Part shown: in pieces, positions 20,939 to 46,367 of the stretch
Position numbering within the stretch: the stretch's first letter is position 1
How the letters are laid out: each line of letters begins with the position of its first letter
From: Candidatus Uhrbacteria bacterium
GTDB lineage: Bacteria > Patescibacteriota > Patescibacteriia > GWA2-47-26
Direction of reading: 5' to 3'
Assembly: GCA_016187515.1 (NCBI GenBank)
Contig: JACPJN010000009.1
Location: 4,891 to 68,890, forward strand
Length of the DNA: 64,000 nt
Notes under the pieces: generated by a model
Database searches by the model: none
Told to the model about the DNA's origin: nothing
The model's input: only the letters and a program-made list of their open reading frames with translations
Program-made: the position numbers and the translations under genes

Positions 20939-22369
<1,431 letters not shown>

Positions 22370-22603
22370 TTATTCTGCAAATTTAAAACATCCTTCGCAT
22401 TGAGGTGTATCGCCTGACGGACGTTCTCTGATGATACACCCAGTAGATTTTACATCCTGCATATACTGTTCCATATTAACTCCTTTGCCGCTTAGTAGCT
22501 CAAGATGCGATTTCCAACACGACGGACAAAAATCACCATCCGGGGAACTCATCCACCCTTCAACACTTAATGTCTCCATTCGTGTTTTTCGTGTTTCATC
22601 CAT
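22370..22603 (-). CDS. Hypothetical small Cys-rich protein (CPSC...CEGC zinc-ribbon-like) between atpG and atpD
   Basis: AT-rich 77-aa ORF MDETRKTRMETLSVEGW...CPSCWKS...CEGCFKFAE. The track ORF extends spuriously to 22765 through the displaced atpG fragment. Confidence 0.3.
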   Translation of the reverse strand: MDETRKTRMETLSVEGWMSSPDGDFCPSCWKSHLELLSGKGVNMEQYMQDVKSTGCIIRERPSGDTPQCEGCFKFAE

Positions 22604-22608
22604 ATCAC

Positions 22609-22668
22609 TATTCCACCGCCGCTTTGCCGGCGGAAATTTCCGCGATTTCGCGGGTGATCGTGGCTTGC
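22609..22668 (-). pseudogene. Displaced, recoded copy of the last 19 codons of atpG (QATITREIAEISAGKAAVE*)
   Basis: Translation is identical to the atpG C-terminus (one L/V difference), but about 35% of nucleotides differ, all at synonymous positions. It is GC-rich like the atpG body, whereas the current atpG tail at 22809-22868 is AT-rich. Confidence 0.6.
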
Positions 22669-22808
22669 CCTGTAGTAGAAGTCCGACGACTCTGCGCTTT
22701 GCCCCGTAGTAGAGCAAAGCTTCACTACAGGGCTTTGCGCAGGTCAGTGTGCGCCTCCGTCGCAATGTCGGACTTTCACTACGGGGCGTGGCGGGTTTGA
22801 TTATTTAA

Positions 22809-23867
22809 TTATTCTAATGCTGCTTTACCTGCTGATATCTCGGCTATCTCCCTAGTAATAGTAGCTTGCCGTGCCTGATTGAACGTAAAGGTTAAGTCAT
22901 CAATCATATCGCGCGCGGCGTCCGAGGCGTTTTTCATCGCCACCATGCGCGCGGAATGTTCAGAGGCGGATGATTCCAAAATTGCTTGGTACACTTGAAC
23001 TTCCACCAACCGCGGGAGCATACCGTCCAGCACTTCGGCCGGGGTCGGCTCGAAAAGGTAGGAGTAGGAGTAGTTCGCCGATCGTAACCCCTCCTCGCCT
23101 CCCCTTACCCTAAGGGGAGGAACCGATCGATCTCCCTCCCTTAAGGTAAGGGAGGGTTGGGGTGGGTTATGAATTCCGCCCGCCACGACTTCCTTCGTCA
23201 ACGGCAGCAACTGTTTCACATTCGGCACTTGGCGGATGGACGAAATAAAATCCGTGTAAGCAAGATACACGGCATCATACTTGCCAGCCACGAAATCCGT
23301 AATTGCAAGTTGCGCGACCGGCCGTACATCCGTAATCCGCGGATTATTGCTTAAATTATTAAATGTCGCGACAATATTCCAGCCCAGCCGTCGGGCAAGG
23401 TCAGTTCCCTTTTTGCCTACTGTCAGAAAGTCTATCTTAATAGCGTTTTTTGGCGTTGTAATAGCGTCGGACTGGCGATCATGCTTAGAAGCCATACGTA
23501 CGCCATCATTACGCCATGAGACGCTATTTAAGCGCACAAACTCTATTACTCGTTTTGCCATTTGCGCGTTGAAGCCGCCGCAAAGTCCGCGGTCGGACGA
23601 AACAAGTACCACAAGTGCGCGTTCCATTTTTTCCGGCTGCCGCAAAAGCGCGTGATGCGCCGCATCCGTCACTTTTGCCAGTTCCCCGACGGTTTCCCAA
23701 CCAAGATTTGCATACGGCCGCGTACCCAGCGTAGCATTTACCGCCCGGCGCATTTTGGACGCCGAAACCAGCTCCATGGCTTTGGTTATTTTTTTAGTGT
23801 TCGAAATACTCTTAATTCTCCTTTTAATAATTCTGGTACTCACGGGCATAGTTTGGGTAGAAGCCAT
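22809..23867 (-). CDS. atpG: F1Fo ATP synthase gamma subunit with an in-frame double repeat insertion
   Basis: Gamma N- and C-terminal helices. The insert at 23083-23171 encodes ...HNPPQPSLTLREGDRSVPPLRVRGGEEGLR.... Confidence 0.85.
   Translation of the reverse strand: MASTQTMPVSTRIIKRRIKSISNTKKITKAMELVSASKMRRAVNATLGTRPYANLGWETVGELAKVTDAAHHALLRQPEKMERALVVLVSSDRGLCGGFNAQMAKRVIEFVRLNSVSWRNDGVRMASKHDRQSDAITTPKNAIKIDFLTVGKKGTDLARRLGWNIVATFNNLSNNPRITDVRPVAQLAITDFVAGKYDAVYLAYTDFISSIRQVPNVKQLLPLTKEVVAGGIHNPPQPSLTLREGDRSVPPLRVRGGEEGLRSANYSYSYLFEPTPAEVLDGMLPRLVEVQVYQAILESSASEHSARMVAMKNASDAARDMIDDLTFTFNQARQATITREIAEISAGKAALE
23083..23171. repeat. Family-1 double element (reverse-complement unit plus forward unit), in frame in atpG
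   Basis: CGTAACCCCTCCTCGCCTCCCCTTACCCTAAGGGGAGG then CTCCCTCCCTTAAGGTAAGGGAGGGTTGGGGTGGGTTATG. Confidence 0.85.
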
Positions 23868-35941: not shown

Positions 35942-35963
35942 ACCCCGTAGTAGAACCCTGTAA

Positions 35964-41079: not shown

Positions 41080-42495
41080 TTACAAATAAATCCTAAATTT
41101 CAAATCCCAAACTTTTGTAATTTGTGTTTTGGTGCTTGGAATTTCCTTGTGTTTTGGTGCTTGGAATTTGGAATTTGCGCGTGGCTCATTCAAAAGTCGC
41201 ACCGCATCTATTACTCCCCCGCCAACCACCCGCTCGCCCTCATAAAACACAATGGATTGTCCGGGGGCAACGGCGCGTTGAGGTTCAGCGAATGTAACTC
41301 GGCAAAAAGTTCCATACTTGGAACTATGGAACTTTTGTTCCATACTAGCATACTCGCTAATATGATAGTATTCTAAACTTGTCAATTGTGCACGATAGCG
41401 AGTACGTGCCATAAGGCGCGCGCCATCTGGTGGTCTCTCACCTATCCACCTGACACCTGACACCTGACACCTGAACGTGCGATATTTTTGCTCCTCTGAC
41501 TCATGCGCCACAATAAGCACATTGCGTGCCATGTCCTTTTCCACCACGAAATATGGCCCGGTACCGCCTAGTTTTGTGCCATGCCGCTGGCCAATCGTAA
41601 AATGCGCCAGGCCGTCGTGAAAGCCAAGTAACGTTCCATGGACATCAATGATGGGGCCGGTCTTTCGGACCCCTCCTAACCTCCCCTTGGTAAGGGGAGG
41701 AAATTGTTTGGCGATTTCTCCCCCTCCCCGAGGGGGAGTTAGAGGGGGTCCGTCCTCCACACCGTACAAAAACTCCTTCAACTCAATTTTCCCCAAAAAA
41801 CAAACGCCCTGGCTGTCTTTTTTATTCCAATTATGCAAGCCGAATTGGCGCGCGAGTGCCCGCACTTGCGGTTTGGTATACTCGCCAATTGGAAACAGCA
41901 CGTGCCTCAACTGCTCCTGCGTAAGTCGCCAGAGGAAATAGGATTGATCTTTGTTCTGATCGACCGCTGTGTACAATTGACATAACTCCCCCTCCCCCCC
42001 TCTTAACTTAAGAGGGGGTTCCGCTCGATCTCCTCCCCTTAAGATAAGGGGAGGTTGGGAGGGGTTATGAATCCTGGCATAATGTCCAGTGGCTACAAAG
42101 TCATACCCGGCTGCAAGAGCGCGCTCCAGTCCAACCCCGAATTTTATCTCCGAATTGCAAAGCACGTCCGGGTTCGGCGTCCGGCCGGCGGCATACTCGG
42201 AATAAAAATTCTGGAGCACCCGCGCCTTATATTCCGCTGTCACATCCCAAACCTGAAGCGGAATACCTAATTTTGCCGCCACCTGCGCCGCGTCCCGCAT
42301 CTCTTGCGCCCAACACGGATCGCCAATTCCGTGGTGTTCCGTCTCAAGTTCCGTGGTGTTCCGTGATTCATACAACTTCAAATACACCCCGGCCACCTCA
42401 TATCCTTGCGCACACAGAAGCGCCGCGGCTACCGAGGAATCCACCCCGCCGGACATCAGAGCTAAAACTTTCTTTTTGTAAACCCTATCGGTCAT
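41080..42495 (-). CDS. mnmA: tRNA-specific 2-thiouridylase MnmA, enlarged to 471 aa by three in-frame repeat insertions
   Basis: PP-loop SGGVDSS at the N-terminus. Inserts at 41981-42069 and 41671-41750 (PPLILRGG-like peptides) and 41305-41336 (KFHSSKYGTF). Confidence 0.8.
   Translation of the reverse strand: MTDRVYKKKVLALMSGGVDSSVAAALLCAQGYEVAGVYLKLYESRNTTELETEHHGIGDPCWAQEMRDAAQVAAKLGIPLQVWDVTAEYKARVLQNFYSEYAAGRTPNPDVLCNSEIKFGVGLERALAAGYDFVATGHYARIHNPSQPPLILRGGDRAEPPLKLRGGEGELCQLYTAVDQNKDQSYFLWRLTQEQLRHVLFPIGEYTKPQVRALARQFGLHNWNKKDSQGVCFLGKIELKEFLYGVEDGPPLTPPRGGGEIAKQFPPLTKGRLGGVRKTGPIIDVHGTLLGFHDGLAHFTIGQRHGTKLGGTGPYFVVEKDMARNVLIVAHESEEQKYRTFRCQVSGVRWIGERPPDGARLMARTRYRAQLTSLEYYHISEYASMEQKFHSSKYGTFCRVTFAEPQRAVAPGQSIVFYEGERVVGGGVIDAVRLLNEPRANSKFQAPKHKEIPSTKTQITKVWDLKFRIYL
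41305..41336. repeat. Family-2 palindrome AAAAGTTCCATACTTGGAACTATGGAACTTTT, in frame in mnmA
   Basis: 9-bp stem AGTTCCATA/TATGGAACT. Other copies at 7091-7123, 31766-31797 (in frame), 51625-51660 (in frame), 52749-52783, 53488-53522 and 57121-57156 (intergenic, with A-run/T-run flanks). Confidence 0.85.
41981..42069. repeat. Family-1 double element (D-type CATAACTCCCCCTC...TTAAGAGGGGG plus A-type), in frame in mnmA
   Basis: Shares TTATG/CATAA termini with the other copies. Confidence 0.8.
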
Positions 42496-44486: not shown

Positions 44487-46367
44487 TCACTCAAAACTAA
44501 GGTCGGATTCCGCCGGAGTTGCCGGCGGCTGATGTTCTGGGGCGGAAGACGGAGCGCCGGGGCTTGGCGCTCTATTTTGTCCAATACTTAATCCGGCGCT
44601 TTGCTGTTCTTTTCTCCGGCGCCGGCGGCGCCGCCGCTTTTTAGCGCTATCTGACATTCCGGGCACAGTACTGGTAAGCGGCGCGGGGATTCCCGACGCT
44701 CCCCCGGGAGGGGGTAAGGGCGGCGCCGAGATAAGCGGACGCGGATGAATTGACGGGCCGGCCTTGAGCGGCATTGGCCTTTGCCGCAGCGCTTCGCTAA
44801 GCGAGATCGGCCGCACTTCCGGCGCTACTTTTGCGACCGGCATCGTCGCCGCAATTTCAATTCTCTCTTTTCCACCCCTGCGGTATGCCTCCTGGCGCTG
44901 CATCCGAGCAGCATCGGGAGCGCCCCGCACCAGAGCCACAGCGCCAGAGCGGAGCTCGGTACTGGGCGCAGCAAGCTCGGTGCGGGGCAGGTCTGCCGAG
45001 GACCCTTGCGGCTGCGAGGGTGCAGCGCCAGGGGGCATACCCATCTCCTCTTCCCCGCTATCCACGCCGCTCCAGCGCATCACTTTTTCCTCGATCACGG
45101 CGACCTCGGCCGCGTAGCGCTCGCGCGAGACGCGAATAATTTTATCGCGGTGGCCTTGAAACTGCGCGACCGGCGGCAAAGTGGTCGCGGAAAACGGATT
45201 GGAAGTAACTCCGTCAATCATGAGTTTTAGATAAATGTCGTATTTCGTGAGATTAACCATATCCTCCTCAATAAAATGCGGCGCGAATTCTTTGGCCACA
45301 AACTCCGCGTCCTCCGCGCCGATGCGGAAGATTACCATGGTGCCCACGTTGCCGAACACCGCGTCCCGAACTTTGGTTGAAATATCCGTAACCAGCTGTC
45401 CGATATATTGGTGCGCGACAATCAAATTCAGCCGGTATTTTCTGGCCTCCGACAAAATATTGGCAAATGATTCCGTGGCAAAATTCTGAAATTCGTCAAC
45501 ATAGAGATAAAAATCCCGGCGCTCCGTCTCGGGAATATCCACCCGCTCCATCGCCGCCAGCTGTATTTTGGTAATCAGCATTCCGCCCAACAGCCGCGAA
45601 GTATCTTCTCCCAGCCGCCCCTTTGCGAGATTCATGATAAAAATCTTGCCGCTATCCATAAACTCGCGGGGATTGATGGTGGATTTGACCTGCGCGACGA
45701 TATTGCGAATTACCGAGGCGGAAAGAAACTGCCCGACTTTATTTTGAATCGGCTGGATCGCTTCATTGCGAAAACGCGCTTCCCAAACCTGATATTCATC
45801 CACCCAAAAGGCCTTGACAATCGGGTCTTTGATCTTGGCCACCACGCGCTTGCGGAAATTCTTGTCCACGAGCAAGCGATTAATCCCCAGGAGTGTTGAA
45901 CCGGGAAAATCCAAAAGCGCCAAAATGCAGTTGTTCAAAATATGCTCCATGCGCGCGCTCCAGACGTCCGGCCAAATTTTCTTAAACACCCCCATGAGCC
46001 CTTGGGCCACCAAATGCTTGTGCAAGGGATTAACGGTCTCCAGCACATTAAACGCCACTGGGAAGTCCGCGTCGGCCGGATTAAAATACACGACATCATT
46101 AATGCGGTGCTGGGGAATGTAATCCAGCAATTTATCCGCCATATCGCCGTGCGGGTCCACCACCCCGACCCCATGGCCGGCGACAATATCGTTGATAATC
46201 AGATTCTCGAGCGCGGTGGTCTTGCCCATTCCGGTTTTCCCAATAAGATACATGTGCCGGCGGCGGTCATCGGTTTTAATGCCAAATTTCCGCTTTTGAT
46301 TGCGAAAATTAGTCATCGCAAAGCAATTGATCTCGTTCTCGTGATCGTGGTCGTAAGTAATCGGCAT
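44487..46367 (-). CDS. FtsK/HerA-superfamily ATPase of the VirD4/TraD/TraG (type IV coupling protein) type with a Pro/Ala/Ser-rich, Arg-run C-terminal tail
   Basis: Walker A LIGKTGMGKTT. VVDPHGD motif typical of TrwB/VirD4. Walker B LYVDEFQNF followed by RKYRLNLIVAHQ. No N-terminal TM. The tail coding region is high-GC. Confidence 0.55.
   Translation of the reverse strand: MPITYDHDHENEINCFAMTNFRNQKRKFGIKTDDRRRHMYLIGKTGMGKTTALENLIINDIVAGHGVGVVDPHGDMADKLLDYIPQHRINDVVYFNPADADFPVAFNVLETVNPLHKHLVAQGLMGVFKKIWPDVWSARMEHILNNCILALLDFPGSTLLGINRLLVDKNFRKRVVAKIKDPIVKAFWVDEYQVWEARFRNEAIQPIQNKVGQFLSASVIRNIVAQVKSTINPREFMDSGKIFIMNLAKGRLGEDTSRLLGGMLITKIQLAAMERVDIPETERRDFYLYVDEFQNFATESFANILSEARKYRLNLIVAHQYIGQLVTDISTKVRDAVFGNVGTMVIFRIGAEDAEFVAKEFAPHFIEEDMVNLTKYDIYLKLMIDGVTSNPFSATTLPPVAQFQGHRDKIIRVSRERYAAEVAVIEEKVMRWSGVDSGEEEMGMPPGAAPSQPQGSSADLPRTELAAPSTELRSGAVALVRGAPDAARMQRQEAYRRGGKERIEIAATMPVAKVAPEVRPISLSEALRQRPMPLKAGPSIHPRPLISAPPLPPPGGASGIPAPLTSTVPGMSDSAKKRRRRRRRRKEQQSAGLSIGQNRAPSPGAPSSAPEHQPPATPAESDLSFE

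Follow-up and report, generated by a model that had tools for sequence, protein, structure and literature searches.

Why does the end of atpG, the gene for the gamma subunit of the F1 ATP synthase, occur twice in the atp operon of a Candidatus Uhrbacteria bacterium, in two versions that spell nearly the same peptide with different codons? The question is raised by a 64-kb stretch of contig JACPJN010000009.1 (64,000 nt, analysed as a whole and called the window below), in which two copies of the atpG C-terminus lie on the minus strand, in the same frame and 201 nt apart. A preliminary description had proposed that a repeat element inserted into the 3' end of atpG and carried its own replacement coding tail. 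Our analysis keeps the foreign origin of the tail in use and leads to another cause: the structure is probably the footprint of recombination at a hot spot of gene insertion rather than a mobile element of a new type. In the direction of transcription, the parts of the locus are as follows.

22809-23867, minus strand: atpG (F1 gamma subunit; Pfam PF00231, ATP-synt, E 6e-85), a hybrid gene of a resident body and about 19 imported last codons
22864-22870, minus strand: upstream copy of GGCAAGC, covering the atpG codons Arg-Gln-Ala, the last shared sequence before the tails diverge
22809-22868, minus strand: atpG tail in use, 19 codons plus TAA, xenologous, encoding QATITREIAEISAGKAALE and the stop; GC content at third codon positions (GC3) 0.20, codon-choice log-likelihood -31.2
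22788-22868, minus strand: tail in use together with the spacer behind it, exact sequence CAAGCTACTATTACTAGGGAGATAGCCGAGATATCAGCAGGTAAAGCAGCATTAGAATAATTAAATAATCAAACCCGCCAC
22788-22808, minus strand: 21-nt AT-rich spacer (TTAAATAATCAAACCCGCCAC; GC 0.38) from the stop codon in use to the hairpin, presumably intergenic DNA of the donor
22667-22787, no strand assigned: 121-nt nested hairpin resembling repetitive extragenic palindromic (REP) and REPIN elements, with outer arms at 22667-22687 and 22767-22787 and an inner hairpin at 22701-22733 (inverted repeats I2, I5 and I6)
22663-22669, minus strand: GGCAAGC at the joint of hairpin end and displaced tail, the longest exact run common to both tail regions (7 nt)
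22608-22667, minus strand: displaced resident atpG tail, 19 codons plus TAG, without a gene body, encoding QATITREIAEISAGKAAVE and the stop; GC3 0.70, colinear with contig L134 of a relative

The second tail downstream of atpG is real, as had been described, with its position corrected by one nucleotide: read at 22609-22668 it falls into the wrong frame. The two tails share 18 of 19 residues and differ in one, a single TTA/GTG change from Leu to Val, as originally reported. At the nucleotide level 41 of 60 positions are identical and 19 differ (32%, slightly below the 35% first estimated). Seventeen of these differences lie in third codon positions and two in first positions (AGG/CGC for Arg and the TTA/GTG change), so that nearly all, not all, are synonymous, and 16 of the 19 sense codons are changed. 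A six-frame self-comparison returned the two tails as the only nearby pair in the window with high protein and low DNA identity (blastp E 7.6e-7). When 19 random substitutions were simulated in the tail, none of 200,000 trials gave one amino-acid change or fewer, the minimum being five. Because random mutation never reproduces the pattern, both copies must have diverged under purifying selection, i.e., in the different genomes of separate lineages. The complete gamma protein is 100% identical to P0001, a protein from a metagenome-assembled genome (MAG) of Candidatus Uhrbacteria represented by one contig, and close gamma homologues (60-80% identity) all have the same conserved tail. The junction is recent enough for the displaced copy to be still undecayed.

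The GGCAAGC "direct repeat" at the two boundaries consists mostly of the first five bases shared by both tails (CAAGC) plus a 2-3-nt overlap with the end of the hairpin (terminal GG(C)); the GGC at 22667-22669 is common to the joint of the displaced tail and the terminal GGGC of the hairpin. Duplication of a target site is not required to account for the repeat. A resemblance to a REP arm (CTATTACTAGGG compared with CTACTACAGGG) is seen in the opening codons of the tail in use (22850-22862; GCT ACT ATT ACT AGG G) and may be a coincidence arising from AT-rich Thr and Ile codons.

Which of the two tails is foreign can be read from codon usage and from the relatives. The tail in use chooses AGG, ATA twice, GCT, GCA three times, TCA, TTA and GGT, and among the 19-codon windows of this genome its choices rank at the 0.16th percentile, compared with the 84th for the displaced tail. 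GC-ending third positions number 4 of 20 in the tail in use, which is the joint lowest value among about 58 gene ends, and 14 of 20 in the displaced one, so the early impression of an AT-rich tail in use and a GC-rich displaced copy stands. Codons -80 to -21 of atpG have a GC3 of 0.65; immediately before the tail, the gene body shares the high GC3 of the genome at large. No shift in composition is seen over the first 60 codons of atpD. Of the two tails, it is the displaced one that comes nearest to the tails of relatives (82% identity to L085, 90% to L132 and 93.5% to a remnant in L001). The tail in use matches relatives' tails at 40-47 of 60 nt, within the range among orthologues (40-53 of 60), and the two tails of the window, with 41 of 60, have diverged to the same degree as such orthologues.

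The context downstream of the displaced tail has the same bearing. It consists of two features.

22370-22603, minus strand: ORF77, an open reading frame (ORF) for a small Cys-rich protein, an older resident cassette that begins 4 nt past the displaced stop codon
20939-22357, minus strand: atpD (F1 beta subunit, from the ORF list; 77-90% to atpD of relatives), the next operon gene and the downstream boundary of the variable region

The ORF77 protein has CxxC...CxxC motifs, and its gene is AT-rich (GC3 0.32). It matched no Pfam or NCBIfam model, and a word-indexed protein search gave neither a homologue nor an exact 77-aa reading; an exhaustive search alone recovered P0121 (77 aa, 60% identical, E 2.7e-26) and a weaker homologue of 98 aa, P0129. 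In four contigs of relatives (L134-L137) an ORF77 homologue is placed between an atpG tail fragment and an atpD start and adjoins both, so that the order tail fragment, ORF77 homologue, atpD head in L134 is colinear with the displaced tail of the window. From codon usage, the tails of relatives and the context of ORF77, it therefore follows that the resident order was atpG with the GC-rich tail, ORF77 and atpD, and that the AT-rich tail, the spacer and the hairpin are the newcomers. The direction originally proposed is thus upheld: about 200 bp of foreign DNA came in where the atpG tail begins and brought the tail in use.

Only 141 nt separate the two tails, and most of them form the hairpin. 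The block of word repeats described here earlier exists and resolves into four copies of GCCCYGTAGTRRA at 22667-22787, two per strand, compared with 0.26 expected by chance. They fold into one long nested hairpin (RNA -73.1 kcal/mol, z -8.7; DNA z -6.6). A permissive Rfam search of 22000-23400 found no match to the hairpin and gave only chance miRNA-like matches on a different palindrome. A terminator and promoter scan detected no terminator and no promoter on the operon strand, which rules out the hairpin as an intrinsic terminator. An integron cassette with an attC site was rejected as well, as the hairpin ends in GCCCC...GGGGC and lacks the GTT box (RYYYAAC ... GTTRRRY expected). For the spacer, no counterpart occurs in those atpG-atpD junctions of relatives that were read. 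Within the window the REP-like motif is confined to this one cluster and one isolated half-site with one mismatch (ACCCCGTAGTAGA), at 35942-35954 in a 22-nt gap between two minus-strand ORFs.

Outside the window, a metagenome scan found the core of the inner hairpin in 42 contigs of 26-65% GC, as 30 distinct sequences, where by our estimate about one would be expected by chance; viral contigs, scanned likewise, gave no match. The pattern used for the scan prescribed the 10-bp stem GCCCCGTAGT/ACTACGGGGC; outside this stem most copies have an AGA/TTC block with an A-C mismatch, followed by distal stems that differ in sequence and in many cases can still pair. The core measures 31-44 nt, and 40 of 43 copies lie outside ORFs of at least 90 aa. 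A nested layout like that of the window recurs in L110 and L100, and nested or adjacent doublets are found in L110, L100, L090 and L105. In one locus, L093, the motif stands on both sides of a gene for a Y1_Tnp protein resembling transposases of the IS200 and RAYT (REP-associated tyrosine transposase) types; the protein scores 36.8 bits with Pfam (cut-off 23), and its best NCBIfam model, REP_Tyr_transpos, reaches 51.5 bits, below the cut-off of 80. This gene (L093, 1854-2615) itself holds an in-frame insertion of its own repeat (SSTTGRSGRSTTGRSGRPVVD). A RAYT-like gene in L119 is flanked by a different repeat. Among the flanks of the hairpins in L087-L128, the same trinucleotide (GAA, TTC, TTT, TCC, AAT or GGA) was counted manually on both sides of 10 of the 30 distinct hairpins; such pairs could have arisen by duplication of a 3-bp target, or they could belong to a longer stem with mismatches.

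The hairpin thus belongs to a widespread family that is REP/REPIN-like, with incomplete membership. REP and REPIN elements are mobilised by RAYT (Y1) transposases (PMC3733652; also PMC3116915 and PMC3337134). Like them, the family consists of short, imperfect extragenic palindromes with a GTAG, whose inverted doublets make larger hairpins, and in the single locus L093 the RAYT-like gene between two copies of the motif recalls the layout described for REP/RAYT systems (PMC3733652). Unlike them, it has a low copy number (one cluster in the 64 kb of the window), shares the same stem across contigs of 26-65% GC instead of being species-specific, and carries GTAG inside the conserved 10-bp stem (GCCCCGTAGT), not as an unpaired tag. 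A search of the literature on palindromic repeats in the Candidate Phyla Radiation (CPR) found nothing relevant. A duplicated gene end adjoins none of the other 42 hairpin copies, and the earlier suggestion of a repeat element that carries a replacement tail by design is not borne out.

If the hairpin does not explain the second tail, what does? Among contigs of relatives the atpG-atpD junction is hypervariable. The site is empty in L002, L086 and L132, with 4-9 nt between the genes, and holds short AT-rich spacers in L085 and L130. Elsewhere it contains a small membrane ORF (L129), BrnT/BrnA (L003), vapBC (L084) or, on the contig of P0009, a DUF5678 gene together with a retropepsin-like gene. 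Toxin-antitoxin (TA) cassettes of these kinds, i.e., BrnT/BrnA, vapBC and DUF5678 with the retropepsin-like gene, lie between atpG and atpD in L003, L084, L138-L146, L134-L137 and the P0009 contig. In four cassettes that were read, the cassette has its own TTGACA-like promoter, placed 3-24 nt past the atpG stop codon or, for the vapBC copy of L134, directly after an atpD head fragment.

Several of these junctions also hold displaced gene ends. Nine contigs (L138-L146) have the full atpG tail, 3 nt, a TTGACA promoter, vapB, a PIN toxin gene with its stop codon, AAAATTTCCGCCGGCAAAGCGGCGTTTGAATAA, ORF143/149 and atpD, in which AAAATTTCCGCCGGCAAAGCGGCGTTTGAATAA is a 10-codon fragment of an atpG tail encoding (K)ISAGKAAFE and a stop. 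L134-L137 have three tails: a full one, followed by a cassette; AEISAGKAALE with its stop behind a vapB-like fragment, followed by the ORF77 homologue, an atpD head fragment and vapBC; and AGKAALE with its stop, fused to the end of the PIN gene. The 18-codon atpD start fragment is found upstream of the vapBC promoter, at 1527-1580 of L134; therefore gene heads as well as tails are duplicated at this locus. The relatives' fragments are truncated at the 5' side to 11, 10 and 7 codons and differ from the tail in use by synonymous changes only, e.g., 9 of 36 nt with no amino-acid change. The displaced fragments start at codon -19 in the window and at -11 (L134), -10 (L138) and -7 (L134) in the relatives, and the inserts behind the relatives' scars are quite different from that of the window and free of the hairpin. 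The varying joint codons and the hairpin-free inserts argue against a fixed attachment site. No recoded duplicate of a gene end was found elsewhere in the window, at the 42 hairpin copies or in 80 distant atpG loci (relatives with at most 50% identity among the matches listed in a scan with an atpG alignment, used as negative control; 0 of 80).

Further contigs record exchange at the same place. In L001 (990-1060) atpG is joined to the middle of vapB through AAGC microhomology, with both parents of the four-base overlap readable; the gamma protein is cut to ...QARQAY and loses 17 residues. L001 is a deletion derivative, and its PIN toxin gene no longer has a complete antitoxin gene beside it. 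L130 and L131 agree in the spacer and in the entire gamma protein but not in atpD, where an in-frame insert distinguishes them; L131 has the same insert as the window. This pattern indicates mosaic recombination within the operon. The vapBC cassettes are 83-90% identical between lineages, whereas the adjacent atpG 3' ends, the most conserved part of that gene, are 76-81% identical. Because vapBC is more alike than the atpG next to it, the cassettes move between lineages and yet land at the same locus.

With moderate confidence, we read the structure of the window as a recombination scar between diverged alleles of the atp operon and not as the work of an autonomous element. We infer one-sided homologous recombination combined with joining at a microhomology (homology-facilitated illegitimate recombination), probably after DNA uptake, from a donor allele of the same operon. 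Before the event the resident operon would have read atpG with its GC-rich tail, ORF77 and atpD. The donor would be a related, AT-richer lineage, whose DNA carried its own atpG end, a stop codon, the 21-nt spacer and the REP-like nested hairpin. On the upstream side, exchange would have been homologous, within the highly conserved atpG block before the tail, which would have kept the gene in frame and without a visible seam. Downstream, the imported DNA would end at the hairpin and be joined illegitimately to the start of the resident tail through the 3-nt overlap GGC. From such a one-sided joint it would follow that the donor tail is the one in use and that the resident tail lies 201 nt downstream, where it would still be transcribed with the operon but would have ceased to be translated into gamma. 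As no exact match between the two tails exceeds 7 nt, homologous deletion of the insert would be rare and the scar would persist.

This course of events agrees with what the locus contains. The atpG of the window is in frame and full length. The atpG block from -180 to -90 is identical at 25-29 of every 30 positions among relatives, long enough to serve as a homologous anchor, and identity falls in the tail. Five features fit allelic exchange: seamless upstream sequence, a 5'-truncated fragment downstream, variable joints, short microhomologies and different payloads. That the joints cluster in the last 60 nt may be due to the scarcity of intergenic DNA, which would leave a redundant atpG end among the few harmless sites.

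Several points weigh against a recombination scar. A donor allele in which an AT-rich tail is followed by this hairpin was not found, and the microhomology at the joint of the window is bounded only, at 3 nt or more. At the upstream boundary as well, the change in codon usage seems to come no more than about 20 nt from GGCAAGC, and a discrete segment of 194-201 nt, inserted by short homology at both ends, would also fit such a switch; with only about 10 synonymous sites per 30 nt, the upstream crossover cannot be located by composition or by identity to relatives. Two independent events, those of the window and of L001, have atpG joints within 4 nt of each other. The structure of the window is seen on a single assembled contig, and DNA uptake and a dependence on RecA are presumed for an uncultured host.

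Some of these points would be expected if a dedicated mobile unit of about 200 bp, made of a recoded tail and the REP-like hairpin, targeted the conserved GGCAAGC in atpG, its divergent tail keeping the essential gene intact. The unit could have travelled as a single-stranded DNA circle made by a RAYT/IS200-type Y1 transposase, or by nuclease-driven homing. The same 7-mer marks either end of the foreign DNA, L093 connects the hairpin family with a Y1 transposase, and the joints of the window and of L001 nearly coincide. The REP-arm likeness of the 5' part of the tail in use (CTATTACTAGGG and CTACTACAGGG) and the identical flanking trinucleotides of 10 of 30 distinct hairpins point the same way. 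We consider such a unit unlikely all the same, since the other 42 hairpin copies lack a gene-tail duplicate, the 64-kb window has no Y1 transposase gene, the insert is too short for a recombinase gene, the scars of the relatives lie at other codons and stem from TA cassettes that lack the hairpin, and the match of the 7-mers is largely the shared start of the two tails. A broader form of the idea is equally doubtful, namely that CPR cassettes, both REP hairpins and TA modules, spread as units together with divergent last codons of atpG and are targeted to the GGCAAGC region by a Y1 transposase or nuclease. If it were true, the cassettes would be mobile elements able to land in an essential gene by bringing a replacement end, and the synonymous recoding would also guard the insert against loss by recombination.

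The direction of the event might also be reversed. The AT-rich tail, spacer and hairpin would then be resident, and a block reaching from the GC-rich tail through ORF77 into atpD would have been imported, anchored in atpD and joined illegitimately at the end of the hairpin. The structure is symmetrical, and an event anchored on the right would leave 5'-truncated tail fragments as well; ORF77 is AT-rich, and the block of tail, ORF77 and atpD exists as a unit in another lineage. This is an improbable reading, as it is the tail in use that is the codon-usage outlier and the displaced tail that matches resident usage, with an atpG body GC3-rich like the genome immediately upstream of the former and no compositional break in the first 60 codons of atpD.

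The architecture further matches that of icd and icdC flanking the e14 element (PMC13626634), so that the locus could be the remnant of a larger element of the e14/phage 21-in-icd type, with an attachment site (att) mimicking the atpG end and an integrase of its own, later deleted almost entirely. No integrase or other element gene remains in the 141 nt between the tails, the joint positions vary among relatives, and an internal deletion that left exactly a REP hairpin would be unparsimonious, all of which makes such a remnant quite improbable. Still less credible is an assembly chimera of two strain variants of the operon in the metagenome: the structure of the window is indeed known from one contig only (that of P0001), but the joint shares 7 nt, far below assembler k-mer sizes, and equivalent structures recur in independently assembled contigs (four, L134-L137, and nine, L138-L146). 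Tandem duplication of the tail in place, followed by divergence or by the action of a diversity-generating system with template and variable repeats (TR/VR), would account for close direct repeats in the same frame and is effectively refuted, as a freed copy would gain non-synonymous changes, of which the simulations above never gave as few as are seen here.

A diversity-generating retroelement was rejected, since the differences are synonymous and not adenine-specific (C/T, G/T, C/A and G/A) and the neighbouring ORFs that were scanned contain no reverse-transcriptase domain. An intron was considered and rejected too.

The immediate neighbours of the insert are atpD, atpC and genes for an ATP-grasp-like protein and a UvrD/PD-(D/E)XK helicase-nuclease. 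No integrase domain was found in the neighbouring ORFs, the 201-nt insert is without a gene, and no competence gene was found among the 10 large ORFs of the window that were scanned. A minus-strand ORF at 44487-46367 has domains of a type IV secretion coupling protein (TrwB_AAD_bind and TraG-D_C). The window also contains a second, unrelated palindrome family, CCTCCCCTTA-N3-TAAGGGGAGG, with 18 half-sites compared with 0.5 expected, 11 of them inside long ORFs. Its sites are at 23082-23172 (atpG), 22197-22235 (atpD), 20437, 28678, 29834, 41691-42054, 50959, 55296 and 56240. The copies within atpG and atpD are in frame, which recalls the Rickettsia palindromic elements, and in the gamma proteins of relatives these two loops hold other in-frame inserts.

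How does the scar compare with known systems? In icd of Escherichia coli, the prophages e14 and phage 21 supply a gene end that has diverged at synonymous sites, and the end they displace survives as the pseudogene icdC (PMC13626634, citing Hill et al. 1989). This is the closest formal analogue: in both cases the insert sits in the 3' end of a gene of an essential pathway, the end in use comes from the insert with mainly synonymous difference, and the displaced end persists. The preliminary description had drawn a parallel to integrative elements, which is apt insofar as an insert lies between two gene 3' ends, the proximal one used and the distal one displaced, and fails insofar as there is neither a recombinase nor a fixed crossover core. 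The e14 prophage measures 15 kb, encodes an integrase, uses a fixed att core and excises, unlike the 201 nt found here with no recombinase and with joint codons that vary among relatives.

Homology-facilitated illegitimate recombination is known mainly from laboratory transformation, in naturally transformable Acinetobacter and Streptococcus. One homology anchor lies in a conserved gene, the other joint forms at a microhomology of 3-10 nt, and DNA of diverged relatives is thereby imported. It is the closest mechanistic analogue. What differs is the setting: here the process is deduced from the natural genomes of CPR bacteria that are uncultured, it strikes a single operon junction repeatedly, and nested gene-end fragments remain. 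In fungal mitochondria, mobile ORFs bring a replacement C-terminus for atp6 or cox genes and encode homing endonucleases. There, too, an insert comes with a foreign gene 3' end, and a fragment of the original one survives farther downstream; unlike those ORFs, the atpG insert encodes no nuclease.

The finding is a variant of known processes, and its main value is a clean natural footprint of recombination between lineages and of cassette turnover in an essential CPR operon. A widespread family of REP-like hairpins is defined here as well, and TA cassettes are shown to lie between atpG and atpD. For annotators the locus holds a warning, as a "recoded duplicate" beside a gene need not be a self-targeting element. 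For the biology of these bacteria, it is a readable natural record of gene gain inside an essential operon of very compact genomes: with each acquisition come the donor's atpG end and sometimes an atpD start, and the resident gene end persists as a fragment that looks intact. Xenologous fragments of this kind are possible markers with which recombination events between lineages of uncultured bacteria could be counted and ordered.

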